From: Patescibacteria group bacterium
GTDB taxonomy: Bacteria > Patescibacteriota > Minisyncoccia > UBA6257 > HR35
DNA length: 32,000 nt
Reading direction: 5' to 3'
NCBI GenBank assembly: GCA_030549845.1
Contig: JAUQQN010000001.1
Location: forward strand, 270,596-302,595
In this document: piece by piece, positions 4,206-30,393 of the stretch
How the letters are laid out: each line of letters starts with the position of its first letter
Numbering within the stretch: the stretch's first letter is position 1
Translations under genes and position numbers: made by a program
Notes under the pieces: generated by a model
Told to the model about the DNA's origin: nothing
The model's input: only the letters and a program-made list of their open reading frames with translations
Databases searched by the model: none

Positions 4206-4240
4206 ATTTTAAAAATTATATTATAATAAATTTACTGGGA

Positions 4241-4357
4241 ATGAATACGGTTAAAAAGAAAAAAAAGAAAACAGGATTTTTAGCAAGGTCAAGTTATAAA
4301 GCAGGGAGAAAAATTTTGCAGAGAAGAAGGAGAAAAGGTAGGAAAAGATTAGCTTAA
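4241..4357 (+). CDS. rpmH: 50S ribosomal protein L34 (38 aa), not in the supplied ORF track
   Basis: Hand translation gives MNTVKKKKKKTGFLARSSYKAGRKILQRRRRKGRKRLA*. It carries the L34 signature GF.AR....GRK.L.RRR.KGRK.L. The stop TAA (4355-4357) overlaps the rnpA ATG as TAATG. A TATAAT lies at 4222-4227. Confidence 0.9.
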   Translation: MNTVKKKKKKTGFLARSSYKAGRKILQRRRRKGRKRLA

Positions 4358-4695
4358 TGCTTCCGAAAAAATATAAATTAAAGAAAATAGACTTTGAAAA
4401 TATTTTTAAAGTGGCGAAAAAATTTAATAATGAATATTTTGTGGTTTTAAAAGTAAATAAATTAGAAAAAAAATTTGGAGTATTTCCAAGTTTAAAAGAA
4501 TTTAAAAAGGCGGTAGAGAGAAATAAAATCAAAAGGAGGATATTTGAAATTATAAGATTAAATTTTGATAAAATACCTTTAGGGTGGTTTTTAATTTTTC
4601 CAAAAAAGAATTGTTTAAAATTAAACTTTGAAGAATTAAAGAAAAAATTGTTAGAAATAATTATTAACATAAAATCCACAAATTATTCACAATGA
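4357..4695 (+). CDS. rnpA: RNase P protein component
   Basis: Sits between rpmH and yidC. The conserved RNR motif is present (KAVERNKIKRRIFE), and the protein is basic and ~110 aa. Confidence 0.88.
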   Translation: MLPKKYKLKKIDFENIFKVAKKFNNEYFVVLKVNKLEKKFGVFPSLKEFKKAVERNKIKRRIFEIIRLNFDKIPLGWFLIFPKKNCLKLNFEELKKKLLEIIINIKSTNYSQ

Positions 4696-5318
4696 AAGAA
4701 ATTTTTTACGGAATTTTCGTTCATCCGCTTGTAGTTATTCTTTTAACTATTTATTTGTTTTTGAATGATTTTGGAATCACGATAATTTTAATGAGTCTTT
4801 TGTTAAAAATATTTTTAAGTCCACTTTCTTTTTTACAATATTTGGAAGAGAAGAAACTAAAAAAAATACGGGAAAGAGTTAATAAGGAAACTATAAATAT
4901 AAAAGATTTTATAAAAAAAGTTGAAATTATGAATAAAATTTACGAAGAAGAAAAATTCAGTCCATTTAAAAATATTTTGATTAACTTTTCTTTAATTCCA
5001 TTTTACTTAGGAGCAATTCTAGCAATTTATGAATTAGTTAAAACAATCCCAAACGCTTTATTTTTGAATTATGTAAATTTACTAAAACCGAATATTTATC
5101 TGGCTTTTATCACAACATTTTTTAATTTTTATTATGCTTATAACCAACCAGGAGAAAATAGGAAAATTATGTTTTTTATTTTTGGAGTGCTTTCAGTAAT
5201 ACTTTTTACTTTACCATCCTTTTTAATTTTATATATATTAACTTCGATTATTTTGAGTTTTTTAGAGAGAAAGATTTTCGATTGGTACTACGTAAAGTTT
5301 ATTATCAAATCTGTTTAA
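4692..5318 (+). CDS. yidC: Minimal YidC/Oxa1-family membrane insertase (208 aa)
   Basis: ATGA overlap with rnpA. It has multiple TM helices, and the first TM (ITIILMSLLLKIFLSPLSFLQ) is followed by a basic amphipathic segment, as in short YidC proteins. Synteny is canonical. Confidence 0.8.
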   Translation: MKEIFYGIFVHPLVVILLTIYLFLNDFGITIILMSLLLKIFLSPLSFLQYLEEKKLKKIRERVNKETINIKDFIKKVEIMNKIYEEEKFSPFKNILINFSLIPFYLGAILAIYELVKTIPNALFLNYVNLLKPNIYLAFITTFFNFYYAYNQPGENRKIMFFIFGVLSVILFTLPSFLILYILTSIILSFLERKIFDWYYVKFIIKSV

Positions 5319-6341
5319 AAATATTACACCTAAAGGAGTTATAACAGGTTGTAAAATATCAAATTTTCCATCTAAATCAAAATACTTAAGTTCGTTTTTA
5401 ATTGGATCAAAAATTACTAATCTATCATTAAAGTTTTCTTTGTAATAATACCACCTTGTTAAATCAGTGATAGACTGATTTAAGGGAACGCCACAAACAA
5501 GCTTTGTTTTAAATGTACATTTTTCTTTTAATGTTCCAAAATTGAATTCTTTAAGTTTAATCCCTTTTGAGTTAATTAAATAACTTTTCCATTCTTTTTC
5601 TAATAAAGAAACAAAAATCAAGTCTTTTTTGTTAGATAATGCACTTAAATTAATGCCATTTTCTAATAAAATTGTTTTTTCTCCTCTTTTGTTAATAAGA
5701 ATTAATGGTGAAGAATATGTATATTTTAAGTTTTCATAAACTAAGATACCATTCTCAATTACATCAAACTCAGGGTTTAAAATATAAATATCTACAAAAG
5801 GTTCTAGAGATTTTTTAAAGGTTGCTAAATAAGAAAATTCATTTGTTAATACATAGATATATAAATCATCTCCATACCAAAATGTTTTTTTAGTGCTTCT
5901 TGGAAGTTTTTCTATTCTATCTTTTGTGGTATCTAATAAATAATAATCTTCATCTTTTTTAAAAATAATTTTCGTTTTTGAATTAGAAAAAGAGATATTT
6001 TTAATACCCTCTTTTTTATAAAATTCTTTATAAGTTTTATCTTCTATATTTATTTCTTTAATAGTTTTTGACTCTGGATCATAAGCATATATATAAGGAT
6101 AATCTATTTCAGGATATAATAAAATTTTTTCATAAAGAATATTAGGTTTTTTTACTTCTTTTTGTTCAATTCCTCCAACCGAAGGAGAAGGCTCTTCGAT
6201 ACTTTCTTCTATAGTTTTTTCTTCTGTTATTTTAATTTCCTCAGGTTGTTTTGGTTTCAATTCTTTATAAAAGTAAAAAATAAAGCTTATGAATAAGATC
6301 AAAACTAAAACGAAGAAAATTTTTTTAACTGTACCTATCAT
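5262..6341 (-). CDS. Hypothetical N-terminally membrane-anchored extracytoplasmic protein; last gene of the T4SS-like operon
   Basis: N-terminal TM (IFFVLVLILFISFIFYF), an acidic linker, then a beta-rich repetitive body. ATGA overlap with the upstream gene. The 3' end overlaps convergent yidC by 57 nt. Confidence 0.6.
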   Translation of the reverse strand: MIGTVKKIFFVLVLILFISFIFYFYKELKPKQPEEIKITEEKTIEESIEEPSPSVGGIEQKEVKKPNILYEKILLYPEIDYPYIYAYDPESKTIKEINIEDKTYKEFYKKEGIKNISFSNSKTKIIFKKDEDYYLLDTTKDRIEKLPRSTKKTFWYGDDLYIYVLTNEFSYLATFKKSLEPFVDIYILNPEFDVIENGILVYENLKYTYSSPLILINKRGEKTILLENGINLSALSNKKDLIFVSLLEKEWKSYLINSKGIKLKEFNFGTLKEKCTFKTKLVCGVPLNQSITDLTRWYYYKENFNDRLVIFDPIKNELKYFDLDGKFDILQPVITPLGVIFLNRFDNKLYVVPIENLSL

Positions 6342-6970
6342 TTTTTTCTTTTTATAAAATAAATTATAAGAACAAAAACCAAAATAGCCCCAATTGTTGC
6401 TAAAGTTATCAAAAAAATATTAGAGAAAATTTTAGAAGGCAAGGGAATTTCTTTTTCAGTAGTTTTTGTTACCACTTTAAATTGTGTGGTTATAGGAACT
6501 AACTCCTTTATTGGTTGAGAAAATGGATAATTTGGGTTTTTTGCTGTTTTACAATCTAAGGGACATAAATTTTCTTCTCCTGGTTCACATATATTATTTT
6601 CATTACAAATTGTTAACCCTGATAAATCTAAATTTTCTTTTTGGTTATTTTTTGCATTGATTAGTTCTATTTTACTTAAATTTAAATAATTAGGAATTGT
6701 AATAAAATCAAAATAAGGTTCATTACTGGGAGAAAAATAAATTATATCAATAATCTGATTTTTAGTGTTATAAATTAAAAGCAAATAATCTTTGCCATTT
6801 CTATTTACAGTTTCATTACTGTTATTTGAATATTCTGCTCCTTTAAAATAATTGAATTTTATTTCATTATTTTCTTTAATAAAATAGATAGTTAAAAATT
6901 TAGGAAATTCTGTTTCTCCCGTTTCGCTTTCTTCAAGTTCTTCAGGTAAAATTGTTAATATTTTTTTCAT
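6338..6970 (-). CDS. Hypothetical C-tail-anchored protein with a four-Cys CxxxxxxC...CxxxC stalk motif
   Basis: C-terminal TM plus basic tail (IFLITLATIGAILVFVLIIYFIKRKK). The motif CNENNICEPGEENLCPLDC lies at 6551-6607. No obvious signal peptide. Confidence 0.6.
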   Translation of the reverse strand: MKKILTILPEELEESETGETEFPKFLTIYFIKENNEIKFNYFKGAEYSNNSNETVNRNGKDYLLLIYNTKNQIIDIIYFSPSNEPYFDFITIPNYLNLSKIELINAKNNQKENLDLSGLTICNENNICEPGEENLCPLDCKTAKNPNYPFSQPIKELVPITTQFKVVTKTTEKEIPLPSKIFSNIFLITLATIGAILVFVLIIYFIKRKK

Positions 6971-6984
6971 AGATTTATTTTAAA

Positions 6985-8079
6985 TTACTTAAGGTTAACT
7001 TTACCAATTTTACAGACTGTTATATAAGAAGGTTTTATTGATGTGGCATTATTTAAATCTCCTTTACCGAAACCAGCAAATAGATCCAACCAAGCATCAG
7101 CTCCATTTTTTAACCCACCACCTGTATCAGTAACTATCAAAATTTTACTGAAATTAGGATTACAAGAAATTTGAGTCCCATCTTTTTTATTGCACGCTAA
7201 AACCTTTAGGATATCAAAAGCATTAAAAACCATATCATTTCTATTATGAGCTACAGTTATAAGAGGAATTAATGGGCCATAACTTCCATAAATTTTCCCA
7301 GTAAATGACTTTCCAACACTATCTGCTGTAGTTATAGCTTTGTTTTCATCTAAAACATCTTTGTTCTTAATTGATTCTTTTTGGGATGACATTGCTGCAG
7401 GACAATTATGAGGAGGATTTCCTGTGACTTTAATCCAAGTCCATTTCCAACCATATCTACATTTATCTAATTCTTCCCCTGATTTTTTAGATTCATTTAA
7501 AATTTGTATCCCATCCAAGGCATTTAATACTTTCTTTGTTCCAGCAGATCCAAATAACCCTGTTCCTTGCAGGGTGACATCAGAAGAAAACTTATGCCAA
7601 TTATATGTATCTTCATAAAAAGGAATATAATAAGTTGTTAATCTAACCAAATAATTTTTAGATTTACATTCTCTTTGTTGTAATTGATTTATTTCTTCTT
7701 GCGGAATTCCTGTAACAGATATGGTGTAATCTAAATAATTTATAGTAGTAGTGGTAACAGCAACATTTATTGATGGAAGTTGAATGTTAATTATTTTAAA
7801 CATTATTAATCTTGCATTAAATATTTCTGGGTTTATCCAATAAAGCAAAACACCAGAAGAAAAAATAACAATTAAGCCTATAATAGAATTTCTCATCTGT
7901 CTTTTGCCTTCCATTTTTATATCAGGCACAACACTTAATAAGTTCTTAAAAGCTCCTATAAAAAACATAATAAAAGCAATAACAACAGCTAAAGCTACTA
8001 TTAAGTTATAAATAGCTTGAATACATCCTTGTATAGTAACACAACTTGAAGCAATAAACTGTTGTATATCTGGTATCAT
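6985..8079 (-). CDS. Membrane hairpin (VirB2/T4SS-pilin-like) fused to a 3D-domain (MltA-like) peptidoglycan lytic transglycosylase
   Basis: The N-terminus has two hydrophobic helices separated by a charged loop (NLIVALAVVIAFIMFFIGAF...KMEGKRQMRNSIIGLIVIFSSGVLLYWI). The C-terminus carries a 3D-domain hallmark, DTGGGLKNGADAWLDLF (7078-7128), preceded by LTTYYIPFYED...DVTLQGTGLF. Confidence 0.55.
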   Translation of the reverse strand: MIPDIQQFIASSCVTIQGCIQAIYNLIVALAVVIAFIMFFIGAFKNLLSVVPDIKMEGKRQMRNSIIGLIVIFSSGVLLYWINPEIFNARLIMFKIINIQLPSINVAVTTTTINYLDYTISVTGIPQEEINQLQQRECKSKNYLVRLTTYYIPFYEDTYNWHKFSSDVTLQGTGLFGSAGTKKVLNALDGIQILNESKKSGEELDKCRYGWKWTWIKVTGNPPHNCPAAMSSQKESIKNKDVLDENKAITTADSVGKSFTGKIYGSYGPLIPLITVAHNRNDMVFNAFDILKVLACNKKDGTQISCNPNFSKILIVTDTGGGLKNGADAWLDLFAGFGKGDLNNATSIKPSYITVCKIGKVNLK

Positions 8080-8690
8080 TTTTCTATTTTTATTTGGTCT
8101 GAGCTAAATTCAATTGGATTATCTATATTTGTAACAATAACCTTTACTTCGCTTCCATTTTCGAGCCCTTCGGGATCAAATAAAAGGCTGTAATAAAATT
8201 TATTAAAAACATTCCAAGCAATTGATAAGTTATCTGAAGAAAAATTAAATGTCAAAGGAAAAAGTTTTTCATTTTTTTCGATTCTTCCAAAAGGCAAAAC
8301 TACATTAAGTTCTTCTAAGTACCTTACAATAGAAACAGCAGGCAAATTTTTTTGTTTAAAAACAAAACTATATTTCTTGTCAAAACTTAAATCATTTGAA
8401 TAAATTCTTACTTTTCCTGAAAGAAGTTTATTTTTTGATTCGAAGTGCAAAAGTGGTTTATGGGTCTCATACGTTGCTTGGCTTCCTTCAAAAAATAATA
8501 CCCATTCATAATTTAATAAATCAGGCTTATATTTAGAAAAATCTGCTTCAATTCCTATTAAATACTTATCTCCATTTTTCTGAAACGAAAAATAAGCAAA
8601 ATCTTTTTGAGAAAAAACAAGGCTATAAGAAAAAAGCGAGAAAATAAAAATTATGAGTAAAATTTTAATAAATTGTGAATTAATTTTCAT
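8076..8690 (-). CDS. Hypothetical secreted protein (start moved to the internal ATG)
   Basis: The Met at 8688-8690 gives a clean signal peptide, MKINSQFIKILLIIFIFSLFSYSLVFSQ. The longer ORF (to 8786) would overlap the upstream gene by 79 nt. ATGA overlap with the downstream gene. Confidence 0.6.
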   Translation of the reverse strand: MKINSQFIKILLIIFIFSLFSYSLVFSQKDFAYFSFQKNGDKYLIGIEADFSKYKPDLLNYEWVLFFEGSQATYETHKPLLHFESKNKLLSGKVRIYSNDLSFDKKYSFVFKQKNLPAVSIVRYLEELNVVLPFGRIEKNEKLFPLTFNFSSDNLSIAWNVFNKFYYSLLFDPEGLENGSEVKVIVTNIDNPIEFSSDQIKIEK

Positions 8691-8707
8691 AAAATTATTA
8701 TAAAATA

Positions 8708-9247
8708 TCAAATGGTTTCTCCAATTACTTCTTCTTGTTGCTTTTTTACTTCTTTCTTTAATGACCTTAATCTTTTCACTCTCCAAAGCCTTCCTCTAGA
8801 AACTAGCATTGTTAATGTTTTTATTGGAGCAATTTCTATTAAGCTTCCTATTATTGGAATAAAACCAAAGAATTCTATCGCAACTAAGAAAACATAAACA
8901 CCTCCTTCAATTTGAGAAAGGTATCCATTTTTAGTATAATAAAATATCAAATATAAAAACAGTAAGGCTCCAGGTATCTCAAAAATCAAAGGAATGATTC
9001 CTAAAATACTTAAAGCTCCTGCACTTGCTAACCCTATTATACTAAATATAAATTCAAAAATATCTGCTGTTATTAATAAAATAAAGCTTAGATACCAAAT
9101 CCAGCTTATATAATGAGGTTCTTCCTCTTCTTCAGTTGTCTCTTCAAATTTTTTTAATCTTCCTGATTTTTGTAAATAATCTTCTTTTTTCTCTTCGGTG
9201 TAATCTAATTTTTTAATTTCAGAATTTGTTTCAAACACTGCCTTCAT
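8708..9247 (-). CDS. Hypothetical polytopic membrane protein (about 4 TM)
   Basis: Acidic N-terminus, then four hydrophobic helices, then a basic tail. ATGA overlap with the VirB4 ATPase gene upstream. Confidence 0.6.
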   Translation of the reverse strand: MKAVFETNSEIKKLDYTEEKKEDYLQKSGRLKKFEETTEEEEEPHYISWIWYLSFILLITADIFEFIFSIIGLASAGALSILGIIPLIFEIPGALLFLYLIFYYTKNGYLSQIEGGVYVFLVAIEFFGFIPIIGSLIEIAPIKTLTMLVSRGRLWRVKRLRSLKKEVKKQQEEVIGETI

Positions 9248-11040
9248 TGATTTTTCAAAGCTTCTTTTATTGCCATTAATTGCTCTAGGGAAGCTTTAAT
9301 TATTTGATCTTCAGCATAAGATGCTAAAACATACAAAGGAATTCTTTTAAGACCAGCAATTAAAATTCCTCTTCCTCTTTCAGCTTGTATTAAAAATCTT
9401 TTTTCGCCTTCAGATAAGGCAAATACTTGGCCTACTGTATCAATTGTTGTTGGTGATTGTTTCATTAAAAATGTAAGTGCAGAGTTTGTAATTATAGGCT
9501 TACCATAAGGAGAGCTCAAAAAATCATCTATATCTTGAGTTATTGTGGTTATTCCTAAAAGATATTTCCTACCTCTTTTTATTGCATTAAGCAAAAAATT
9601 AGCACCTGATTCATTTTTCATTATCCACCATGCTTCATCTATTATTAAAATTCTTTTCTTTCTTTCTCTTCTTATTTTATTCATTAAATCATTCAAAACA
9701 ATATACATACCAATAGGTCTTAACTCTTCTACTAAATCTTTAAACCCAAAAACAACTATTCTCTTTTTAAGATCAACATTTGTTGGTTGATTAATAAAAC
9801 CACTAAAACTACCCTGAGTAAATGGATATAATTTTTCAGCTATAGACTTACCTCCTTCTATACTTAAAAGAACTTTTTCTAAGTCATTTAATGTAGGGAA
9901 AACTTCTATTTTTCCAAAATCTGTATCAGGTAAAATATTAAAGGAAGCATACGTTTGGCTTATTGCTCTATCTAATATAGTAAGTTCTTCTGCGTTAAAT
10001 TTCTCACCTGCTATAACTTCTAAAAGTCCAATTATATCACTAACTTTTTCTTTGTATACATCTTCAGGATTTTCTCCCTCAAGTAAAGGAGGTAAATCAA
10101 GAGGGTTAATTTTGTGCTCTGATCTTAAAGAAATTGGTATAAAAGATCCTCCATAAACTTCAGCTATTGATTGATATTCATTTTCTGGGTCTAACACAAT
10201 GACATCTTGCCCCATCATTAGATTTCTCATAATTTCAATTTTTGCAGTATAACTTTTACCTGATCCTGATCTTGCTAAAATTACCATATGAGCATTCTCA
10301 AAAGCAAATCTATCGAGAAGAACCAGGGAGTTGTCTTGCAAATTAATACCCATCAAAATTCCTTTTTCCATAGACAATTCTGATGAGATAAATGGGAAAA
10401 ATGAACTTGCGGCAGATGAGTTCATTACATATTCTATTTGAAGTCTATTAGAATTAAGAGGTAGTGTTGAAAAGAAAGCATCTTCTTGTTCAAATATAAT
10501 TGGTTTTGCAACAATTAAATTACTTTCTAAAATTTTTATAATTCTTTTTTCTTTTAATAATAATTCATCTTTATCTTCAGAAAATATAGTAAGATATAAA
10601 GCAACATTAAATATCTTTTCTCTTCCTTGTACTATAGCATCCCTTAATTCCTCTATATCATTGTAGGCTGTTTCAAGTTGTGGGTCTCTAGGCAAGCCTT
10701 TTTCTTCAATTTCTATTAATTGACTTTCTACTCTTAAAAGCTGTTTTTGTAATTGCTTAAGAATAACTCCAGGATCTCTAGGAACAAAATAAATCGAAAG
10801 ATTAAAAGGCTCTTCTAATGCTAAAAGATTTTCTAACCAACCAGCAAACAAAAATCTTGGATAAGTAATTATAGCTATAACCTTTCCATAAACTTCTCCT
10901 ATTTGAAAATCAGATACCCCAAATAAAGCTCCTGGAGGGGCTATTATATTTTTTATTTTCTCAAAACCTTTTGCCTCCTCGATTTTAACGATAGGAATCC
11001 CTTTATTTGTTTGTTGGAAAAATGGTAATTTGAATGCCAT
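9244..11040 (-). CDS. virB4: VirB4/TraC/CagE-family T4SS ATPase, middle and ATPase domains
   Basis: Walker A ARSGSGKS (10252-10275) and Walker B ILIIDEAWW. The N-terminal segment ITYPRFLFAGWLENLL resembles the y-P-x-x-v-x-x-gWL segment of Firmicute ICE VirB4 proteins. At 598 aa it is ~200 aa shorter than typical VirB4. Confidence 0.85.
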   Translation of the reverse strand: MAFKLPFFQQTNKGIPIVKIEEAKGFEKIKNIIAPPGALFGVSDFQIGEVYGKVIAIITYPRFLFAGWLENLLALEEPFNLSIYFVPRDPGVILKQLQKQLLRVESQLIEIEEKGLPRDPQLETAYNDIEELRDAIVQGREKIFNVALYLTIFSEDKDELLLKEKRIIKILESNLIVAKPIIFEQEDAFFSTLPLNSNRLQIEYVMNSSAASSFFPFISSELSMEKGILMGINLQDNSLVLLDRFAFENAHMVILARSGSGKSYTAKIEIMRNLMMGQDVIVLDPENEYQSIAEVYGGSFIPISLRSEHKINPLDLPPLLEGENPEDVYKEKVSDIIGLLEVIAGEKFNAEELTILDRAISQTYASFNILPDTDFGKIEVFPTLNDLEKVLLSIEGGKSIAEKLYPFTQGSFSGFINQPTNVDLKKRIVVFGFKDLVEELRPIGMYIVLNDLMNKIRRERKKRILIIDEAWWIMKNESGANFLLNAIKRGRKYLLGITTITQDIDDFLSSPYGKPIITNSALTFLMKQSPTTIDTVGQVFALSEGEKRFLIQAERGRGILIAGLKRIPLYVLASYAEDQIIKASLEQLMAIKEALKNQ

Positions 11041-11669
11041 TATTCCTCTAATGACTCTATTAATTCTTCAAACAATTTTATTGGAGCAAGCCCCCATCTT
11101 AAGCTAGGATTGTACATCTCATACAAAAGCTGCAAAAGTTCATAATTATTTAATCTTATTGGTTGAAGTCCAATAGCAGAAAGTTTTTCTGTTATATAAA
11201 TAACCCTAGTCTCTAATTGCTCTAATTTTGTATAAAATTCCTCTTCTTTAATTTTTGTTTTTTTACCAAATTTTTTTATTTCAATTACTTCTCCCTCATA
11301 TGGTACAACAATATAAAATATTTTTTTCATTATTTTGTGGGTTTCTACATAGCTTTGTATAAATTTAATGTATTCTTCTAGTTGTAATTTAATCAATGGT
11401 TCATCTTCTACTTCAAGTCTTTCTTTTAAGTAATTTAAATAACCCTCTATATACGCATACCTTGAAACAACTAATATTTGTAAATTAAAATCTAGCCCAT
11501 CTAGAAATTCTTTAAAAGCACCAACTACTGCTTCCTTTTCTTGTTCTGAAAGTAATGTAAAATTAATTCCCGGAACAGCTAAAATAGCTCTTAAACTTCC
11601 ATCTTCTAATATAAGAGTGTCATTTTTTATATCTTTTACTTGTATTAAAGATGCAGTTGTTTTTACCAT
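11040..11669 (-). CDS. Separate ORF resembling the N-terminal domain of Gram-positive VirB4 (split VirB4, part 1)
   Basis: IQVKDIKNDTLILEDGSLRAILAVPGINFTLLSEQEKEAVVGAFKEFLDGL..LQILV matches the pattern I recall for the first ~200 aa of Tn916 Orf16/TcpF-type VirB4. 209 + 598 aa is about full-length VirB4. TAATG coupling, with GAGGAA upstream of the next start. Confidence 0.55.
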   Translation of the reverse strand: MVKTTASLIQVKDIKNDTLILEDGSLRAILAVPGINFTLLSEQEKEAVVGAFKEFLDGLDFNLQILVVSRYAYIEGYLNYLKERLEVEDEPLIKLQLEEYIKFIQSYVETHKIMKKIFYIVVPYEGEVIEIKKFGKKTKIKEEEFYTKLEQLETRVIYITEKLSAIGLQPIRLNNYELLQLLYEMYNPSLRWGLAPIKLFEELIESLEE

Positions 11670-12190
11670 CTTCTTTTAGGAAATTTTGGAATAGGGAAAT
11701 TAATATAAGGATTAAAAGGATTATAACCTCTTTCTATAGCTTTTTTTACATATACAGCTAAAGATTTATTTACTTCTTTTTCTTCTTTTGGTTTTTCATA
11801 ACTTACAAGAGGGAGCTCTTTTTGTGTTTCAGTTTCTGTTATTTCTTCTAATTCAATATATTTTTCTAAGAGAGGAGATTTTATATATTGAGTAGTAATT
11901 TTAACTTCTTCTTTCCATATATATTTTTTAGGAGATAATAGAATCATGATAAGTTTTGGAAGAAAGGCATAAATATATTTATTATTTATTTTCAACCAAC
12001 CTATAATAAAAGCTGCTAAAACAATAATTCCAGAAAGAAATACTGCAATAAAGCCACCAAATAATTTAAATGTAGCAAAGGATAACAAAAATGCCCCAAA
12101 ACTTATAAAAAGCTGAGGAAATGTAAAAGAAATCATTCCTAAACGTAATTTATCTTCTATTGTTATATATTGTGGTACACTAAATCTCAT
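11663..12190 (-). CDS. PrgI-family (VirB3-like) small T4SS membrane protein
   Basis: The N-terminus MRFSVPQYITIEDKLRLGMISFTFPQLF is followed by two TM helices, as in PrgI family proteins. It sits immediately upstream of VirB4, as in Gram-positive T4SSs. Confidence 0.55.
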   Translation of the reverse strand: MRFSVPQYITIEDKLRLGMISFTFPQLFISFGAFLLSFATFKLFGGFIAVFLSGIIVLAAFIIGWLKINNKYIYAFLPKLIMILLSPKKYIWKEEVKITTQYIKSPLLEKYIELEEITETETQKELPLVSYEKPKEEKEVNKSLAVYVKKAIERGYNPFNPYINFPIPKFPKRRW

Positions 12191-12198
12191 TAAAATAA

Positions 12199-12837
12199 TT
12201 ATAAATTAGAAAGATCTAAAACTTCTCCCTCTTTTTTTTCTTCTTTTGGTTTTTTGATTACCACAATTTTAGAAGATATATCCTCAGTTGGCTTAGGAGG
12301 CTCCCAAGAAATCGTTTGTTTTATATCAATTGTAGATTTAGGAACTTCTGTCTTTATTTGTTGGAGTTTAGATAAATCTATGGGAGTAGTTGGCTTAGGA
12401 ACCTCGATTGCTTCTTTTGTTTTTACTACTTTTTGTAAATTTAGAATTTTTTGTGGTGGAACTTCTTTGGCTTTCTGTATTAGATCAATCACTTCTTTTG
12501 GCACTTCTTTTTTGATTTTTTGAGTCTTTTCTTTCTCTTCTTTCCATAATGGTTCTACAAGTGGCAGGAATCTTGCTTTTATATGATATTCTAATTGTTT
12601 AGCTTTTTCTGTATCATAATTTAATCTATTTCTAATAATTTCCGTTAAGCTTTCTTTTTCTAAATCAAATCTTTTTATTGCTAAATCTTGCAATAAATAA
12701 ATAAATTCAACCTCATATTCATCACTAATTTCAAATTTCTTTTTATATTCTTCAAAAAAAGAATAAAAATCATCAGAATATAAAAATTCTTTTACTCTAT
12801 CTGGTGCTTCTGTATATGCATCTATAAATGATTTCAT
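12199..12837 (-). CDS. Hypothetical protein with a helical N-domain and C-terminal EVPK..IDL repeats
   Basis: Five degenerate repeats: EVPKEVIDL, EVPPQKILNL, EVPKPTTPIDL, EVPKSTIDI, EPPKPTEDI. No TM segment and no signal peptide. Confidence 0.6.
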   Translation of the reverse strand: MKSFIDAYTEAPDRVKEFLYSDDFYSFFEEYKKKFEISDEYEVEFIYLLQDLAIKRFDLEKESLTEIIRNRLNYDTEKAKQLEYHIKARFLPLVEPLWKEEKEKTQKIKKEVPKEVIDLIQKAKEVPPQKILNLQKVVKTKEAIEVPKPTTPIDLSKLQQIKTEVPKSTIDIKQTISWEPPKPTEDISSKIVVIKKPKEEKKEGEVLDLSNL

Positions 12838-12861
12838 TTTTAAATATTATAAAAATAAATT

Positions 12862-15360
12862 TTATGTAGAACTTGCACCACCACCCCCTCCAGTAGATTG
12901 GGCTGATTCAGATTTTTCTTTTTCTCTCGCCTCTTCTAGTGCCCGAATTCTTTCCTCAATTTCTTCTCTTTCTCTTCTAGCTTCTGCCCTATAAGGTCTT
13001 TCAAAAATCCCAGCAATCTTTTCAAGCAGAGGAGTTAATTCTTCGGGATTTGAAAGTTGGACACCTTGTTTTTGTATTAATTGTTGTAATTGTACGATTT
13101 CTTGTTGTAGGTCATGTATTTCTTCAAGTCTTTGCTGTAATTCGGTTTTTCTTTGGTTCAAGTTAATTTTTTCATCTTCACTTGCTCCTTGTATTTCCCC
13201 ATCTATGGCTTGTATTTCTTGGTTTAATGAATTAATTTCTCTACCTAGTTCTACTTCAATACCTTTTAATATCTGCTGTAGGTCTATTTTCCCAATAAGT
13301 TTTTGAGGATCTTTTGCCCAATCTTTTACTGTCTTATGTGATATTTCTCCTTGAGAATAAGAACCCATTAGTTGTCTTCTAATCTCTTCTTCTAATTTTG
13401 GTTGAAGCGTATCTGGTATTTTTTGGCCTCCAATCACTAACCTCTGAGCTATTTGTGGTCCTAGCTCTCTTATACTTCTTGCAGCTGGAGAAGCTCTAAT
13501 AATTCCTTGAAGTCGTTGTGGACCTATATTTCTTTCGACATCTTGATAAATACCTAAATCATGTAAATACTTTAAATTCTTTGGATTCCAGAATATATCA
13601 TTTAAATCTCTACCAGAAGTAAACATAAAATAATTGGATAATAATGTTTTAACTTCAGCCTCATCTGCTCCAGCTTTTCTAAGTAAAGTTCCTATTGTTT
13701 CTAATCCAACCTCGCGATGACTAATAATTTCTGGAAGGGTTGATAATACCTCAGCTCGTTTTTCTCTTCCTTCAGTAATTTTTGTTAAAATACATCTTAA
13801 TTTCTTACCACATAATGCTTTACGAGTACTTAAATCTAATTTATCCCAATCCAAAATACTAGCAATTTTAAATAGTTCATCTGCACTTAGTTTTGAATTC
13901 ATTACTTTAGCTAATTCTTCTTTGAATGGTCCTCTATATCTTTCAAATATTCCAGCAATCTCTTCAGGGCTTTTACCTTCCATGTGGTCACTGAAAATAG
14001 CTTCAGCTTCTTTTTTAACTTTTTCCTTTGTTGGTTTTTCTAATTTTTCACCTACTCCTTTGGTCCATAACCCTAAACTTCTAATGAATCCAACCCTACT
14101 TTTTTCTAAAGCTTTTCCTATAGTAGAAATTCCTCCTCCTATTTTTGATATAGCTGGTCTTACTGTCCACATTCCTACTCCTGCTGCAGCAGCACCAGCC
14201 AATCTCCAACCTTTCAATGCCAATCCATAAGTATAATTTGCAAAAACACCTCCTAAACTTAAAGAAACTTTCATTACAATATAGAAATAAAGAACAAGGA
14301 AAACAAATTTAGTAGAGACAGCAAAGAAAATACTTAAAGTAGTTTTTTCACTTTCTTCTAGTCCTGCTATAGGTTCTGCTTCTAATGAAGGTTTCATTAA
14401 ATTTTGTAATTTCTCTTCATTAAATGCACCAGTTATGCCTTCTGTTTTTGTTGTTGCAACTAAAGCTACTCCTATTAAAATTAAGACAATTAAAATCAAA
14501 ACATTGACTGTCCAATTTAGAAACCATTGCCACCAAGTATTCCAATATTTTTCATATCCAGGTGTTGCATATGCTATAGCAGCTAAAGGAAGTAAGCCTG
14601 CTAAAAATCCAATAATAAAGTATCTTCCAATAAATATTCCCACAAAAGACCACAAAGTAAGAGAAAATATAAGAGAAAGAACTATACCTACTAAATTAGC
14701 TACTATATTTAATGCTCTTCTTAAAGCTGCTGCTTGATCTGGAGTTAGATCAGTTTGATATTTAGTAGCATTTTCAATCATTCCTTTTAATTGTTCTGTT
14801 ATAAAACCTGGAGGTACAGCATTAAATATTGCATAAATCAATGTACCTAATTTTGAAGAGTTATAATTTTCAGTCATTAAATTTGCAGAAAGCAAAATAC
14901 TTCTTTGTATAAAATTGATTGTTCCAAAAAATACTTTTGCTAAAAGAAACGAAAAGTTTATTAAAAATGCTATAAGTATTACACCGAATAAAATCCTTCT
15001 CGCCTGGTCTTCTTTATTTAAGATCCAATTAATTCCTGAATATAATGCTAAAAATACTAAAATTACATAAGATAGATTTTTGAAGAATTCCCATAAAAAT
15101 GATGCAAGCCCTCCTTCTTCAAATGGATTTAAAACGCTGAATATGTCTATAATAATTCTTGCTAGTCTTGCGAAGATATTAAAAAGAAAAATCACTCCGG
15201 TTAAAACAATATAAGATACATAATCTATTATTCCAAAAACAAGCGCAGGAATTTTAGCCCAGAAATAATATCCTAATAAGCCTAATCCCAAAGCTCCAAG
15301 TAAACTTAGCCCTATAACTACCCAAACCACTGCTTTATTTTTTAATTTTTGATTTTTCAT
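12862..15360 (-). CDS. VirB6/TrbL-like polytopic membrane protein with a ~430-aa C-terminal soluble/coiled-coil extension
   Basis: About 9 hydrophobic helices in aa 10-400. Then a soluble domain, a Q/E-rich coiled coil, and a GGGGGASST tail. ATGA overlap with the upstream gene. Confidence 0.6.
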   Translation of the reverse strand: MKNQKLKNKAVVWVVIGLSLLGALGLGLLGYYFWAKIPALVFGIIDYVSYIVLTGVIFLFNIFARLARIIIDIFSVLNPFEEGGLASFLWEFFKNLSYVILVFLALYSGINWILNKEDQARRILFGVILIAFLINFSFLLAKVFFGTINFIQRSILLSANLMTENYNSSKLGTLIYAIFNAVPPGFITEQLKGMIENATKYQTDLTPDQAAALRRALNIVANLVGIVLSLIFSLTLWSFVGIFIGRYFIIGFLAGLLPLAAIAYATPGYEKYWNTWWQWFLNWTVNVLILIVLILIGVALVATTKTEGITGAFNEEKLQNLMKPSLEAEPIAGLEESEKTTLSIFFAVSTKFVFLVLYFYIVMKVSLSLGGVFANYTYGLALKGWRLAGAAAAGVGMWTVRPAISKIGGGISTIGKALEKSRVGFIRSLGLWTKGVGEKLEKPTKEKVKKEAEAIFSDHMEGKSPEEIAGIFERYRGPFKEELAKVMNSKLSADELFKIASILDWDKLDLSTRKALCGKKLRCILTKITEGREKRAEVLSTLPEIISHREVGLETIGTLLRKAGADEAEVKTLLSNYFMFTSGRDLNDIFWNPKNLKYLHDLGIYQDVERNIGPQRLQGIIRASPAARSIRELGPQIAQRLVIGGQKIPDTLQPKLEEEIRRQLMGSYSQGEISHKTVKDWAKDPQKLIGKIDLQQILKGIEVELGREINSLNQEIQAIDGEIQGASEDEKINLNQRKTELQQRLEEIHDLQQEIVQLQQLIQKQGVQLSNPEELTPLLEKIAGIFERPYRAEARREREEIEERIRALEEAREKEKSESAQSTGGGGGASST

Positions 15361-18300
15361 TTAATATAAATTTTTTTTGGCTTAAATATATTAATTATCT
15401 CAAAAATGTTTGCTAAAAATCCTACTCCTATATTGAAAATTCTTTTTATTAAAGAGACCCTTTGAGTTTTTTCAGGTAAAGATTGTGATGTAGATTCTTC
15501 AGCAGGTAATTCCTCTTCCTGTTGTTGAATTAATTTATTATTTATTTCCTCTTCAATTTTATCAATTAAAGAATTATATTCTTCGCATAGATTATTAATT
15601 TCTTCAATTTTTTCATTTATTCGATCCAAGTTTTGTTCAATATTAGTTTGTATGCTTTGAATTTCTTCTGGCTTAAATTGACTTAGATAATCTTCCCAAA
15701 TTTTATCTGTTTCTTTTTGCATTTCTTGTATTAATTGATCTTTTTGTTGCTGTAAATTATTTAATTCTTGTAATTTAGTCCAAAAATCTTGATTTTGTTG
15801 TGTAGAGTTTCTATATAATTCTATTACTTCTTTAAAGGCCTTGCTTGTTTTTAAAATAAGCTCTAAAGACTCATCCATTCTTAAATATATAGCTTCTCCT
15901 TTTTCAGCACTCCATTTATTTGGTACCTTAGAAATGGCAAATTCCCACTCTAAAATATTAGTTCTTTTTGCATATTCCATGGTATTTGAAGCATAATTCT
16001 CCAAAGCATTGAAGTAATCATAAAGTTTATTTAAGTCATTTTGGATTGCTTCAGGAGTTGTAGAGGGTGGATTTGTTATTAAATTTGTTAAGAAATTATA
16101 AGATGCCATAACTAGGTTTTCTTGTTGAATACCACTTTTTGATGCTGGTGAATTGTATAAAGAATAAAATATATGTATAAGATCATGAACAATAAAGTAT
16201 ATTTTATACTCAGGTTGTTGATAACCATATTTCCAATCTGTGCCATCATGAAAGTCTGTATCTAGCTGGCTATAATGGAATCTTCTTCTGAAAAATTCAT
16301 AATCTTTATCCTTCATACAATTTGTAATGTGGGTAGGATAAAAATCATTAAAGAATGATAATTTTTCTCTTTTTCCTAAAGAAGGAGCACAATCTGTGTA
16401 TTTTGTGCCTTCACCTACTCGATATATCTTTGTACCAGTGGCTACTGCAATGTAATCTCTTGGGAAATAATTATCATCTAAATCCAAAGGCGGTCGTTCT
16501 AGATCAATATACCTTTCAAAAAATATTGCTATTTTATTTGAATATAAATTACTAGCTCCGTATAAGCTTTGAGATATTTTTGAATTTATTTCTCTAATAA
16601 GATTATCAATTTGAGATTTAATTGAATTTATTTGTTCATCCAATTTATTTATTTTTTCGGTATAACTAGCAGTTATAGAATCAATTTGATTTAAAATATT
16701 TTGGTTTATTAATTTTTCTAATGTAGTTGTGTTTGAAGATATTGAATTGGAAATCTCATTTAGTTCATTTTCTAAATTTTTGAAGTTATAAACTATTTCA
16801 TTTAATCTTTCTATACTTTCTGTAGTTTGCTCTTCTTTTAATTTTTGAATTATATTATCAATTTCATTTTTTGACCTTTCGGAAGTAGAAGTATAATCTT
16901 GAATATTATTCATAAGTTGATTTATAGCCTTCACTATATTAATTACTCTTGAATTTAAACCAATAAGATTTCCTTTTTCTATTTCAGTAATTTTTCTTAA
17001 TTGTGATTCCATAGCAGATTTACATACTTGTTGCGATCCTGGAATTGATACAACCTGAAATTCATTGCATACTACATTTACTCTTTCAGGTCGATAGGCA
17101 TTTTTAATATCAGCCATATAAGAAGAGTTACTTGAAGACCTAGCCTCCAAGCTTGCAAAACCTTTATCAATTATCTTAAACAATTTACTAGAAAGCCAAC
17201 TTCTTATAAAAGCTACTAAAACATTTGTTGCTCGCTCTTGTGATTTAAATATTTCTAAGGGGGATGTTAATATTTGCTCTTTTAACTTTTCATAATCTGC
17301 TGGGGATGATAGGGTTGGCCCAGGTATTAAACAATTAGGATCTTCACCAGGAATATCTTTTTGAGCCTCTATCTTTTGTTTAATTTCTTGTAATTTTTTA
17401 TCCAACTTATCAATTTGAGTTTTATCTCCTTTTAGCATAGCATCTTCTAATTGTCTTGAAACTTCTTCATATTCTACATCTGCCCAAGTTTTTAAACATT
17501 GAGTTTTTGGTTTAAAGGTTAAACCACCGGGTTGTTGAATTTGAGTTTGAAATTGTTCATGTTCTTTATTTAAAGCTTCAATCAATGCTGCTGCATATCT
17601 ATCTTGTATAAGCAAACAATTTGAAATTTTAGCAGCGTCTAAAATAGGTTTATTATAGTCAAAAAATATAGTTTGAATAGCACTAAATTCGGAATCAGGA
17701 TAAATTTGTGCTAGTAATTTTTTGAAATTAAGTTTATTTTTTATAGTTCCAAAAATATTAGCTAGCATTTTAAAACTAGGCTTTTCTATCTTAGCTACAT
17801 AAGTTTCTGGTTTTTTTAAGCTATAAAGATTTTCTTCTTGTAAAGAAGCAGGTTGAATAAGTTCTAAATTTTTATATACTTGCTGCTCCTCGTATTTCTC
17901 GCATATTCTTTTAGAGGCAATATTAAATTCTTGATATTTATAGAAAGCATTCAAAAACCCCATTAATTTAATTGAATTTTCTGCATTTCTTGCAACCTCA
18001 TAACTCAAATCTTTTGTTGAATATAAAAGATTAATTAAACAACCTTTTAATTCTTCTGGGATACAGGGCTGCTCTTTATATTTATTAAATATTCTATTAA
18101 ATACTCTTTGATGTTCTAAAAAAATCTTAAAATTTCTATAAGCTTCTATATCTTTTATATAATTTTTCAAAATTCTTCCATATATGAATTCATTAAGTTT
18201 ATTAATTAATTGAAATTTAAAATATTGAAGGGCATCCTGTAAAGCAAGATGAATAGAAGTTTTAATACTTGCTAAAACATTTTTAGTTGCTTCTTTTATA

Positions 18301-18665
18301 GAACTTGCTATAGCTTTATTTGTTTCTGGAGCTCCTACTGGAACTTTTCCAATTAGTGAACCTAAAATAGATTCTACTGCTTCAATTATTAAACTGGATA
18401 AGAAATCTCTAATCAAGCTTTCAAAAAACCCAGGGCCTTTTGGAAGATTCCCGGCAAAAGCGTCTAATTCTGTTATATAATCAGTTGTTGATGTTGAAAA
18501 TTCTTCGGTTTCTTCAATTTCAATAGGTTTTAAATTGCATTGTAATTTATAAGAAGATAAATCAATTTTTTCAGGGAAATCATCTGATTGAGAAAATATA
18601 AATCTTACTGGCAAGGCATTGAATAAAATAACAAAGATTATAAAAATTGATAAAAATTTTTTCAT
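15357..18665 (-). CDS. Giant (1102 aa) secreted Cys-containing coiled-coil protein of unknown family
   Basis: Signal peptide MKKFLSIFIIFVILFNALPVRFIFSQS. Cys residues are scattered through the protein. A long N/I/S-rich coiled coil spans roughly 16566-16988. The C-terminus is hydrophobic/amphipathic (IFNIGVGFLANIFEIINIF). Confidence 0.7.
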   Translation of the reverse strand: MKKFLSIFIIFVILFNALPVRFIFSQSDDFPEKIDLSSYKLQCNLKPIEIEETEEFSTSTTDYITELDAFAGNLPKGPGFFESLIRDFLSSLIIEAVESILGSLIGKVPVGAPETNKAIASSIKEATKNVLASIKTSIHLALQDALQYFKFQLINKLNEFIYGRILKNYIKDIEAYRNFKIFLEHQRVFNRIFNKYKEQPCIPEELKGCLINLLYSTKDLSYEVARNAENSIKLMGFLNAFYKYQEFNIASKRICEKYEEQQVYKNLELIQPASLQEENLYSLKKPETYVAKIEKPSFKMLANIFGTIKNKLNFKKLLAQIYPDSEFSAIQTIFFDYNKPILDAAKISNCLLIQDRYAAALIEALNKEHEQFQTQIQQPGGLTFKPKTQCLKTWADVEYEEVSRQLEDAMLKGDKTQIDKLDKKLQEIKQKIEAQKDIPGEDPNCLIPGPTLSSPADYEKLKEQILTSPLEIFKSQERATNVLVAFIRSWLSSKLFKIIDKGFASLEARSSSNSSYMADIKNAYRPERVNVVCNEFQVVSIPGSQQVCKSAMESQLRKITEIEKGNLIGLNSRVINIVKAINQLMNNIQDYTSTSERSKNEIDNIIQKLKEEQTTESIERLNEIVYNFKNLENELNEISNSISSNTTTLEKLINQNILNQIDSITASYTEKINKLDEQINSIKSQIDNLIREINSKISQSLYGASNLYSNKIAIFFERYIDLERPPLDLDDNYFPRDYIAVATGTKIYRVGEGTKYTDCAPSLGKREKLSFFNDFYPTHITNCMKDKDYEFFRRRFHYSQLDTDFHDGTDWKYGYQQPEYKIYFIVHDLIHIFYSLYNSPASKSGIQQENLVMASYNFLTNLITNPPSTTPEAIQNDLNKLYDYFNALENYASNTMEYAKRTNILEWEFAISKVPNKWSAEKGEAIYLRMDESLELILKTSKAFKEVIELYRNSTQQNQDFWTKLQELNNLQQQKDQLIQEMQKETDKIWEDYLSQFKPEEIQSIQTNIEQNLDRINEKIEEINNLCEEYNSLIDKIEEEINNKLIQQQEEELPAEESTSQSLPEKTQRVSLIKRIFNIGVGFLANIFEIINIFKPKKIYIK

Positions 18666-19321
18666 AATTTTTCTAAAATTTTTTCTTGTAAATTTGCTAA
18701 ATCGTTAAGAATTAATAATAACGAAGTTCCTTTTTCTGAATCTTCTGTATTAGAAAGTTCAACCAGAGCCTCTCCTAACATCCCTAGTATTATTACTTCT
18801 AATTTGTGAAATTCATAATAACTTTTAGGTACCTCTATTTTAGAAATATTATTTGCCACACTTAAAATATATTGTCCATTGGCCCTTAAATTGTTTTTAT
18901 CATTAAAATCTAAATTAACATATTTTAAATTTTCTATTTCTTTTTTAAGTTCCTCAGCATATACTCTTTCATCCTTTAGGTTGTTTATTTTTATATTTTT
19001 TACATAATTGTCTATTTTTTTAATTAATTTTGCCTCAAGTTCAATTCTTTTTCCTCCTGTACTTATCATCTCTGCTTTTAAATAATCCAAGGCTGCTTTT
19101 TCTAAATATAAATCCTTACCTTCTAATACTTGTAATAAATCTTTAAACTCAGGATATTTGTTAAGTTCAGATTTGTAAAAATTAACGTCCTTTTTATAAT
19201 TTGTTTTCTTGCTTTGGGTTTTAGAACCTGATATTAAAGAAATAAACCCTAAAATAAAAATTATGAATAGAAAGAATAAGATGATAAGCAATAATAATTT
19301 TTTGTTTTTTAAAATTTTCAT
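18662..19321 (-). CDS. Hypothetical N-terminally anchored helical protein; first gene of the T4SS-like operon
   Basis: N-terminal TM (LLLLIILFFLFIIFILGFISLI). ATGA overlap with the 1102-aa gene. The ATG lies 5 nt downstream of tRNA-Thr. Confidence 0.6.
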   Translation of the reverse strand: MKILKNKKLLLLIILFFLFIIFILGFISLISGSKTQSKKTNYKKDVNFYKSELNKYPEFKDLLQVLEGKDLYLEKAALDYLKAEMISTGGKRIELEAKLIKKIDNYVKNIKINNLKDERVYAEELKKEIENLKYVNLDFNDKNNLRANGQYILSVANNISKIEVPKSYYEFHKLEVIILGMLGEALVELSNTEDSEKGTSLLLILNDLANLQEKILEKL

Positions 19322-19326
19322 AGTTG

Positions 19327-19398
19327 AGCCAGTAGCGGGATTCGAACCCGCAACCTACCGCTTACGAAGCGGTCGCTCTACCATTGAGCTATACTGGC
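19327..19398 (-). tRNA. tRNA-Thr (anticodon CGU)
   Basis: Hand-folded 72-nt cloverleaf: GCCAGTA/TA/GCTC-AATGGTA-GAGC/G/ACCGC-TTCGTAA-GCGGT/AGGTT/GCGGG-TTCGAAT-CCCGC/TACTGGC/T. No encoded CCA. Confidence 0.9.
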
Positions 19399-30388: not shown

Positions 30389-30393
30389 TCATT

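Follow-up and report, generated by a model that had tools for sequence, protein, structure and literature searches.

Introduction

The closest described relatives of the gene cluster analysed here are the type IV secretion systems (T4SSs) of the Patescibacteria (candidate phyla radiation, CPR). The cluster consists of 12 consecutive minus-strand open reading frames (ORFs) at positions 5262-19321 of a 32,000-nt stretch of genomic DNA from a Patescibacteria group bacterium (GCA_030549845.1, contig JAUQQN010000001.1, positions 270,596 to 302,595), and this whole stretch is referred to below as the window. A survey of 3,035 Patescibacteria genomes reports VirB4 in 2,417 of them and places the Patescibacteria VirB4 proteins in a monophyletic clade nested in MPF_FATA (Quiñonero-Coronel et al., 2025, Microb Genom, PMC12102498). 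According to the same survey, TrsD is the most abundant virB4 partner, PrgI/VirB3, VirB6 and PF18895 pilins are encoded nearby, and in Paceibacteria and Microgenomatia the neighbourhood of virB4 is enriched in dnaA, dnaN and rnpA; relaxases are nearly absent, VirB8 is almost undetectable and occurs almost only in the class ABY1, and VirD4-like genes lie far from virB4 in most Patescibacteria (PMC12102498). In Southlakia epibionticum, the genes SEML1_0006-0019 were described as an unusual Gram-positive-like T4SS with essential pilins, in which neither a relaxase nor a coupling protein could be recognised and which was found by transposon sequencing (Tn-seq) to be essential for epibiotic growth (Wang et al., 2023, Cell, PMC10633639). 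A 2025 review treats it as a T4SS of a new type, with speculation about a conduit for uptake or signal exchange (PMC12857230), while a 2026 preprint describes feeding on host RNA and tubular structures that may be T4SS pili (bioRxiv 10.64898/2026.06.21.733656).

Our analysis confirmed that the cluster in the window is the origin-proximal, non-conjugative T4SS carried by most of the ultra-small Patescibacteria and described in 2023-2025. Like the published systems, it combines VirB4 and a separate TrsD-like partner with PrgI/VirB3, VirB6 and a PF18895 VirB2-like pilin domain, has no relaxase or type IV coupling protein (T4CP) in the cluster, lies on the chromosome beside dnaA/dnaN/rnpA, and is inherited vertically within the class. 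It differs from them in that neither a free-standing pilin nor a pilin array is present, the sole hairpin being fused to an MltA-like domain, and in that it adds a 1102-aa coiled-coil protein, a Cys-motif protein and a TolB-like propeller, which apparently go unmentioned in the accessible published accounts. The novelty implied in a preliminary description of this DNA, made from the sequence alone, is accordingly reduced: the core system, the absence of a relaxase and the proximity to dnaA had already been published (PMC12102498, PMC10633639), and what goes beyond the available accounts is confined to the accessory set of this lineage and the pilin-MltA fusion, which appear to be undescribed. 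We consider it very probable that the cluster encodes an MPF_FATA-derived envelope machine, of the Gram-positive conjugation-like kind, which is no longer tied to DNA processing and most likely mediates epibiont-host interaction.

The cluster and its two-piece VirB4 motor

The 12 ORFs, numbered g1 to g12 in the direction of transcription, are all intact in the ORF listing of the window and encode proteins of 219, 1102, 832, 212, 175, 209, 598, 179, 204, 364, 210 and 359 amino acids (aa); g9 is counted here as 204 aa from an ATG at 8690, and its mechanical ORF extends to a TTG at 8786. Five of the junctions between successive genes are ATGA overlaps (18662, 15357, 9244, 8076 and 6338); at 11040 the two genes share a TAATG, at 11663 they overlap by 7 nt, and the other four junctions are gaps of 8, 14, 17 and 24 nt. 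The unbroken run and every junction named in the preliminary description could be reproduced from the ORF coordinates. From the gene overlaps alone we infer a single transcript for the cluster; promoter and terminator scans of the window gave no excess over shuffled expectation and are thus uninformative on this point.

By homology, the VirB4 motor is made of two polypeptides, as the preliminary description had proposed. The 598-aa product of g7 (9244-11040, minus strand) is assigned to the VirB4 motor ATPases of the CD1110/PrgJ type, since it matches the NCBIfam model NF045971 conju_CD1110 above its cutoff (367 bits, cutoff 325) over model positions 186-734 of 752, and further matches were obtained to PF19044, AAA_10 and CagE_TrbE_VirB. 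Its Walker A (G259-S-G-K-S263) and Walker B (D468-E469) motifs, read from the alignments with PrgJ and Orf16, are intact. Because the match to NF045971 only begins at position 186, g7 falls short of a complete VirB4 by an N-terminal fifth to quarter. This missing domain is provided by the 209-aa TrsD-like product of g6 (11040-11669, minus strand), a separate polypeptide whose gene runs into g7 through the TAATG junction, and which matches NF041427 TrsD (E 3.4e-7) as well as positions 102-278 of the mycoplasma VirB4 model Mbov_0397 (E 2.3e-11); a BLASTP comparison of g6 with the PrgJ N-terminus gave no significant match.

For comparison across genomes, 80 loci around VirB4 relatives were taken from species-representative genomes, and the 12 proteins together with the flanking genes were mapped on them by BLASTP, iterated hidden Markov models (HMMs) and hhalign. 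In 73 of the 80 loci, virB4 is preceded by a separate TrsD-like ORF, and in none are the two fused, which rules out a frameshifted or artefactual split; the seven loci without such an ORF are truncated at that point or of the Gracilibacteria type. By this distribution, the VirB4 split is ancestral. The closest relatives of g7 come from metagenome-assembled genomes (MAGs) labelled Pacebacteria, Paceibacter or Minisyncoccia (75-89% identity), and the 80 best relatives, at 43-89% identity, belong nearly all to Patescibacteria/CPR or unclassified bacterium MAGs, with one Mollicutes and one Humimicrobiaceae. Compared with an identity of 26% to PrgJ of plasmid pCF10, this set is consistent with membership of g7 in the Patescibacteria VirB4 clade, judged by similarity and not by a tree. 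Besides, the VirB4 gene is spread over two to three ORFs in two MAGs (L060, 2630-6692; L066, about 9360-11764), neither of which has the propeller gene described below, and the broken copies could be pseudogenes, frameshifts or assembly errors.

VirB3- and VirB6-like membrane proteins

The two membrane proteins of the putative translocon were assigned mainly through their families. The 175-aa product of g5 (11663-12190, minus strand) is PrgI/VirB3-like, with transmembrane (TM) segments at residues 27-45 and 48-66. On its own it matches PF12666 (PrgI) with E 1.4e-3, which is under the gathering score, and 38 of 40 members of its family match the same model, the best with 9.5e-16; g5 is present in 69 of the 80 loci. 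The 832-aa product of g3 (12862-15360, minus strand), found in 59/80 loci, is predicted to be a polytopic VirB6-like protein, in which approximately nine TM segments are followed by a hydrophilic coiled-coil C-terminal region of ~470 aa. With this tail it is an 'extended VirB6' in the sense of a recent review (PMC12857230). As g3 alone has no Pfam match, its assignment is transitive: the family profile matches TrwI of R388 (PDB chain 7o3v_F) with E 1.5e-6, and PF04610 TrbL is matched by 8/40 family members (best 3.5e-10). The same profile gave a weak match to the single PrgH sequence (E 0.0033, probability 10%). Both the PrgI/VirB3 and the VirB6/TrbL calls of the preliminary description are thereby supported at the family level.

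A predicted pilin hairpin with an MltA-like domain

The 364-aa product of g10 (6985-8079, minus strand) is predicted to join a VirB2-like pilin hairpin to an extracytoplasmic lytic transglycosylase domain of the MltA family (3D/double-psi β-barrel, DPBB). The hairpin, residues ~15-84, comprises two TM segments with a basic loop and matches the Pfam model PF18895 at residues 15-82 (E 1.8e-8, 34.8 bits against a gathering score of 26.6), pointing to a VirB2-like pilin domain. No other ORF in the window carries a pilin domain, the PF18895 hairpin being present solely as the hydrolase fusion. By the positive-inside loop of the hairpin, the catalytic domain is predicted to face outward.

The C-terminal part was characterised on an AlphaFold2 (AF2) model with a pLDDT of 65 overall and 70-87 in the C-terminal core. 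In a Foldseek search of the PDB, the top 12 matches were all MltA or LtgG (E 1e-4 to 2.5e-2, probability 0.95-1.0), with 2ae0 as the best (E 1.1e-4, probability 1.0, TM-score ~0.27). A PDB sequence search with the C-terminal domain returned MltA chains only, at a non-significant E of 1.1; this alignment pairs the YYxP and D-x-G-G...D308 motifs and sets g10 D318 and D332, both invariant in four orthologues, opposite MltA D297 and D308. The aspartate D332 in the motif W-L-D-L-F is a candidate catalytic residue. In addition, Pfam 3D is matched by one member of the g10 family (7.5e-7), not by g10 itself. The membrane-hairpin/3D-domain hydrolase of the preliminary description is thus supported by the PF18895 N-terminus, the 12 MltA-type structural matches and the one family member in Pfam 3D. 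MltA, the lytic transglycosylase A of Escherichia coli (3D domain, PF06725), is the top structural likeness of the g10 domain and has the Y-Y-x-P and D-x-G-G...(D308)-x-Y/F motifs in common with it. MltA is, however, an outer-membrane lipoprotein of diderms, whereas the g10 domain carries a long insertion, falls below Pfam 3D significance and is placed on a two-TM hairpin in a T4SS operon.

In related loci (L026, L071, L039, L053, L054, L057, L064, L073 and others; P0011-P0013), the PF18895 hairpin was observed as an N-terminal module with very varied C-terminal parts, in proteins of up to 1101 aa. Its partners there include M23, C39-like or M15 peptidases, a 3D domain, a lamin-tail domain and Cys-rich segments, and most of the C-terminal extensions match no Pfam domain.

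Affinity to Gram-positive conjugation systems

The annotation of pCF10 served as the reference for both its Prg/Pcf system and its Tn916-like element. By gene order and ATPase similarity, the affinity of the cluster is with MPF_FATA (pCF10/pGO1-type) and not with Tn916. The genes follow prgH-prgI-prgJ-prgK, that is VirB6 (PrgH), VirB3 (PrgI), VirB4 (PrgJ) and then the wall hydrolase (PrgK), as in Enterococcus faecalis pCF10, the MPF_FATA prototype. Besides, g7 falls in the same NCBIfam family (CD1110) as PrgJ and aligns by BLASTP with its residues 242-778 over 548 aa (26% identity, E 2e-37), whereas the BLASTP match to the Tn916-type Orf16 is restricted to the P-loop (E 3e-10) and the TcpF model scores 19.7 bits. 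The core order orf17-orf16-orf15-orf14 of Tn916, to which the preliminary description had likened the cluster, was consequently not recovered, as that order puts VirB6 after VirB4 and the window puts it before VirB3. The MPF_FA systems Tn916, ICEBs1 and pCW3 do resemble the cluster as monoderm T4SSs with VirB3-like, VirB4, VirB6-like and wall-hydrolase genes in one operon, but Tn916 differs in encoding a relaxase (MobT), a coupling protein resembling FtsK and an integrase.

Several differences from pCF10 were noted as well. On the plasmid, VirB4 is a single polypeptide and a pilin is lacking, while the system also includes PrgL (VirB8-like), PcfC (T4CP), PcfG (relaxase) and LPXTG adhesins, all four of which are missing from the window. 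In the window, the hydrolase domain is of the MltA type and sits on a pilin hairpin, as opposed to a PrgK-type enzyme, and g4, g8 and g9 are intercalated. PrgF, PrgG and PrgL showed no profile similarity to g4, g9 or g1, and with this result g4 was rejected as a PrgF or PrgG, and g9 and g1 as VirB8 candidates. No match of any cluster product to a VirB8-like model was found in Pfam or NCBIfam, the comparison with PrgL covering the g1 and g9 profiles. The staphylococcal Trs systems of pGO1/pSK41, MPF_FATA members with TrsD, are similar to the window in having a separate TrsD beside the VirB4 ATPase (NF041427; PMC12102498). They are set apart as conjugative plasmids with a relaxase and a T4CP, and according to the survey they have no VirB6 homologue (PMC12102498).

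Conservation across Patescibacteria

The mapping of the 80 loci revealed a shared order, [g1-like][large protein] VirB6 - g4 - VirB3 - VirB4N - VirB4C - [small TM][Ig-like] - pilin protein - (x) - propeller, which recurs in Paceibacteria-like MAGs and in Giovannoni-, Niyogi-, Ryan-, Yanofsky- and Nealsonbacteria. The cluster abuts yidC-rnpA-dnaA-dnaN(-PBP) in at least 43 of the 80 loci (PBP, penicillin-binding protein), and the closest species also keep a yraN-divIC-tRNA-Thr block upstream of it. From species to species and from one candidate class to another, the cluster keeps its place and its gene order, with neither a patchy distribution nor a shifting insertion site. The cluster is vertically inherited at a fixed chromosomal site, in line with the chromosomal, domesticated apparatus of the preliminary description, and the synteny comparison that it had called for speaks against patchy presence. 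Within ±10 kb of the 80 loci, no second VirB4-like ATPase was found with the VirB4 profile at E up to 10, a profile that is a weak detector of T4CPs.

In the window itself, Pfam and NCBIfam scans, which covered nearly all ORFs of at least 80 aa (the exceptions being a 101-aa and a 138-aa ORF within 30083-30810), gave no relaxase, coupling protein or integrase, so that the earlier statement on their absence holds for the window. The cluster has a GC content of 0.277, against 0.257 and 0.289 in the flanks and ~27% for the window overall, and its base composition is thus like that of its surroundings, as had been claimed before.

Accessory proteins

Six products, those of 219, 1102, 212, 179, 204 and 359 aa, had been left without a recognisable family in the preliminary description. 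Of these, the 359-aa protein can now be described as TolB-like and the 204-aa protein as a member of an Ig-like family, while the 212-aa protein remains an orphan, no known fold was found for the 1102-aa protein, the fold of the 219-aa protein is unmatched, and the 179-aa protein belongs to a family defined by position only. The claim that all of these but the 212-aa protein carry a signal peptide or a TM segment agrees with our finding that each has a hydrophobic N- or C-terminal segment or is polytopic.

The 359-aa product of g12 (5262-6341, minus strand) is an N-terminally anchored protein with a conserved Cys pair (C275/C283). A TolB-like (PD40) β-propeller is predicted from its family, since the family profile matches TolB (2w8b, 2.3e-12) and the designed 'Cake' propellers (4e-22) in the PDB and PD40 is matched by 5/36 family members; g12 alone has no Pfam match. 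It is present in 37/80 loci, always as the last gene before yidC. The 204-aa product of g9 (8076-8690, minus strand) has a signal or anchor sequence (hydrophobic segment 7-25) and a β-rich ectodomain. It is related to a ~330-aa family of distant loci (hhalign probability 91%), and members of its family match BiPBP_C (11/36), Ig, PKD or Rib, with none of these matched by g9 itself; together with weak Ig-type matches of the family in the PDB, this suggests that g9 belongs to a family with immunoglobulin (Ig)-like/β-sandwich domains, which are found in its longer members. The 179-aa product of g8 (8708-9247, minus strand) has three TM segments and an acidic N-terminus and represents a positional family directly after VirB4, with a hhalign probability of 92% to a ~139-aa post-VirB4 family of distant loci and a weak match to DUF4112 (4e-4, below cutoff). 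In three loci (L010, L014 and L015), g8 and g9 are fused after virB4 into one ORF of ~400 aa, a fusion which suggests that the two proteins work jointly.

Leaving aside the two ATPase pieces, the 212-aa product of g4 (12199-12837, minus strand) is alone among the components in having no TM segment. Its helical domain of ~105 aa is followed by a disordered linker rich in Pro, Glu and Lys and then by a conserved C-terminal motif, which reads IDLSNL here and D-x-Y-R-E in other clades (alignment A5). The AF2 model has a pLDDT of ~90 for residues 1-100 and ~50 for residues 106-212. The gene occurs in 49/80 loci, always between VirB6 and VirB3, and a narrow profile recovered 35 representatives in 1.84 billion proteins. 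Neither a sequence match in the PDB or Pfam nor a PDB fold match for the model was obtained, and g4 is a candidate cytoplasmic adaptor with an orphan fold.

The 1102-aa product of g2 (15357-18665, minus strand) begins with a signal peptide and ends in a TM anchor, the hydrophobic segments being 5-23 and 1076-1094; it contains 12 Cys residues and two coiled-coil regions, one central and one C-proximal. Only 13 clusters were found among 5.8 billion proteins, and the gene is present in 6/80 loci; g2 is thus a clade-restricted giant envelope protein. Its profile returned coiled-coil noise only from the PDB. A protein of ~500 aa that takes this place in distant loci was rejected as a homologue (hhalign probability 1%). 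That secreted family (A8; L017-L074), encoded directly upstream of the VirB6 gene, has a Cys-containing core with the motifs WIRTG, PQNNxYG and GFLG, and no known fold was found for it; some copies carry C-terminal bacterial Ig domains and one carries a Hint domain.

The 219-aa product of g1 (18662-19321, minus strand) has an N-terminal TM anchor (9-27) and an extracytoplasmic helical domain of no known fold, with no PDB match to the conserved domain. It is related at a hhalign probability of 84% to a ~337-aa family upstream in distant loci, and TSP3_bac (Ca-binding repeats) is found in 16/30 members of this distant family and not in g1. Finally, the 210-aa product of g11 (6338-6970, minus strand) has a C-terminal TM anchor and the invariant four-Cys motif CNENNxCExGEExxCPxDC, a Cys stalk motif in the preliminary description; g11 occurs in 4/80 loci, all of them closest relatives. 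No Pfam or NCBIfam family matched g11.

Flanking genes

Beyond the ends of the cluster, the window includes a further 5.2 kb and 12.7 kb, in which only housekeeping genes were found. The left flank (1631-5318) holds dnaN and dnaA on the minus strand and rpmH (4241-4357), rnpA and yidC on the plus strand, with 0.6-1.1 kb between the cluster end and rnpA and dnaA. The rpmH (L34)-like gene is a 38-aa Arg/Lys-rich ORF which completes a rpmH-rnpA-yidC set divergent from dnaA, the dnaA-rpmH spacer being 35 nt only (region 4206-4357). yidC (end 5318) and g12 (stop 5262) are convergent, and their 3' ends share 57 nt (5262-5318), leaving no intergenic room for a terminator on either strand. That the cluster lies beside the replication origin, as proposed before, stands as far as the adjacency of dnaA, dnaN, rpmH and rnpA is concerned. 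The window did not add to it: DnaA boxes (TTATCCACA, at most one mismatch) number 9 against 9.3 expected, so that oriC cannot be placed from them, and the GC skew tracks the coding strand.

On the right flank, divIC/ftsB, yraN, leuS, a small heat-shock gene and a PrsW protease gene are followed by valS and further on by recA. A tRNA-Thr(CGT) gene (19326-19398, minus strand; ARAGORN) lies 4 nt upstream of the g1 ATG on the strand of the cluster, and is found directly upstream of the g1 orthologue in seven further loci (L002-L006, L011 and L012), a kept position which suggests co-transcription of yraN-divIC-tRNA-Thr with the cluster. No 12-mer or longer piece of the tRNA-Thr sequence recurs anywhere in the window, in agreement with the earlier statement that an att-like repeat is absent; with the tRNA also being a conserved neighbour in close species, its use as an att site was ruled out. 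Another tRNA gene, tRNA-Ile with the anticodon TAT (UAU), was detected at 23320-23391 (ARAGORN). AUA codons are usually decoded in bacteria by a lysidine-modified CAU tRNA, and this tRNA-Ile(UAU) may be relevant to the decoding strategy of a very AT-rich genome.

Proposed function and alternatives

By homology, the two translationally coupled polypeptides, the TrsD-like N domain and the 598-aa ATPase, form the VirB4 motor, which would dock on the PrgI/VirB3-like two-TM protein and the extended VirB6 as the membrane translocon. The VirB2-like hairpin would carry an outward MltA-type lytic transglycosylase able to cut peptidoglycan. Judging from topology and conservation, the g12 propeller, the Ig-like g9, the Cys-motif stalk g11, g2 and g1 could make up a part that spans the wall or contacts the host and might replace the missing VirB7/9/10, VirB8 and adhesins, and g4 might act as an adaptor at the cytoplasmic face of the ATPase. 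By analogy with the orthologous cluster of Saccharibacteria, which is essential for epibiotic growth, the whole system would be a non-conjugative conduit to the host. We lean slightly to the uptake of host macromolecules or nutrients, for which the chances seem about even; protein export to the host appears a lesser yet serious prospect, and any other function unlikely.

Several points weigh against this interpretation. The essentiality evidence comes from Southlakia epibionticum only, which is another lineage. The window's VirB6, PrgI, propeller and Ig-like proteins fall below Pfam thresholds by themselves and were assigned transitively, by way of their family profiles, and the MltA call leans on a model of moderate quality (pLDDT 65, TM-score ~0.27) together with a sequence alignment that is not significant. 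Neither the Pfam and NCBIfam scans nor the comparison of the g1 and g9 profiles with PrgL yielded a VirB8-like component. Besides, the roles of g1, g2, g4, g8 and g11 are guesses from topology, and the absence of a T4CP and a relaxase covers the 32-kb window.

A bolder version of the uptake function, to which we give a low probability, is a wall-breaching 'feeding' device of this Paceibacteria lineage that takes in host macromolecules, for example RNA or nucleotides. It would be built with no free pilin in the cluster, from the hairpin-MltA fusion together with the propeller, the Ig-like and coiled-coil proteins and g4, and would work with no coupling protein from the cluster. If true, it would be an operating mode and an accessory architecture so far undemonstrated for any T4SS.

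We rate as improbable a ComB/Ced-like competence machine dedicated to taking up DNA, in which a T4SS operates in reverse to take up DNA for recombination or as a nucleotide source. Such a machine would fit a cluster with no T4CP or relaxase, both of which are likewise missing from ComB of Helicobacter pylori, and the lack of nucleotide synthesis in Patescibacteria is also in its favour. The ATPase weakly matches the NCBIfam models of the archaeal DNA importers CedB (1.9e-17) and CedD (1e-6), but these matches are far under the cutoffs and reflect the common P-loop only. T4SS loci of the class ABY1 are reported to co-localise with comF, recG and radA (PMC12102498), whereas no com/rec linkage is seen in the window, where recA lies 11.5 kb off with unrelated genes between. 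Moreover, competence in Southlakia needs type IV pili and ComEC, and a comEC deletion is viable while the T4SS is essential (PMC10633639, PMC12857230), from which it follows that the essential role of the T4SS is not ComEC-linked DNA uptake.

An apparatus for envelope biogenesis or division that has no host contact, and serves to remodel the cell's own wall or to display surface proteins, is highly improbable. It could draw on the neighbouring genes for DivIC/FtsB, YidC and a transpeptidase (PBP) and on the presence in the cluster of a predicted lytic transglycosylase and a TolB-like propeller, as TolB serves envelope integrity and division in diderms. These neighbours are, however, standard origin-proximal genes that are conserved also in bacteria without a T4SS, the VirB4/VirB3/VirB6/pilin core has no known division role, and the Saccharibacteria data together with the 2026 preprint indicate a host interface (PMC10633639; bioRxiv 10.64898/2026.06.21.733656). 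An ordinary integrative and conjugative element (ICE), Tn916-like or of another Firmicute type, that had entered at tRNA-Thr and whose relaxase, T4CP and integrase lay just outside the window, was rejected because the same cluster occupies the same chromosomal site across species: in close species it is flanked by yraN-divIC-tRNA-Thr on one side and yidC-rnpA-dnaA-dnaN on the other, and dnaA is its neighbour in at least 43/80 loci. A tRNA gene does stand directly at one end, and the core genes do have homologues among the conjugation genes of Gram-positive bacteria, but only housekeeping genes occupy the 5.2 kb and 12.7 kb beside the cluster, neither an att-like repeat nor a composition shift was seen, g7 is only distantly related to Tn916 Orf16 and TcpF (19.7 bits), and in the survey relaxases lie near virB4 in just 15 cases among 2,474 VirB4 homologues (PMC12102498).

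Significance

With the host-directed envelope machine as the preferred interpretation, the picture published in 2023-2025 is unchanged, and the window adds to it one further member and a few accessory assignments. New in this analysis are the predicted TolB-like propeller of g12, the Ig-like family of g9, the orphan helical domain with a disordered tail in g4, and the clade restriction of g2. The window is a clean and complete example of the Paceibacteria type, with all 12 genes intact and coupled, and it offers testable part assignments for structural and genetic work, namely the putative pilin-anchored MltA-like hydrolase, the TolB-like propeller and the cytoplasmic protein with its C-terminal peptide motif. 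A large part of bacterial diversity consists of Patescibacteria, which are obligate epibionts; few machines have been shown to be essential for this lifestyle, and the T4SS is among them.

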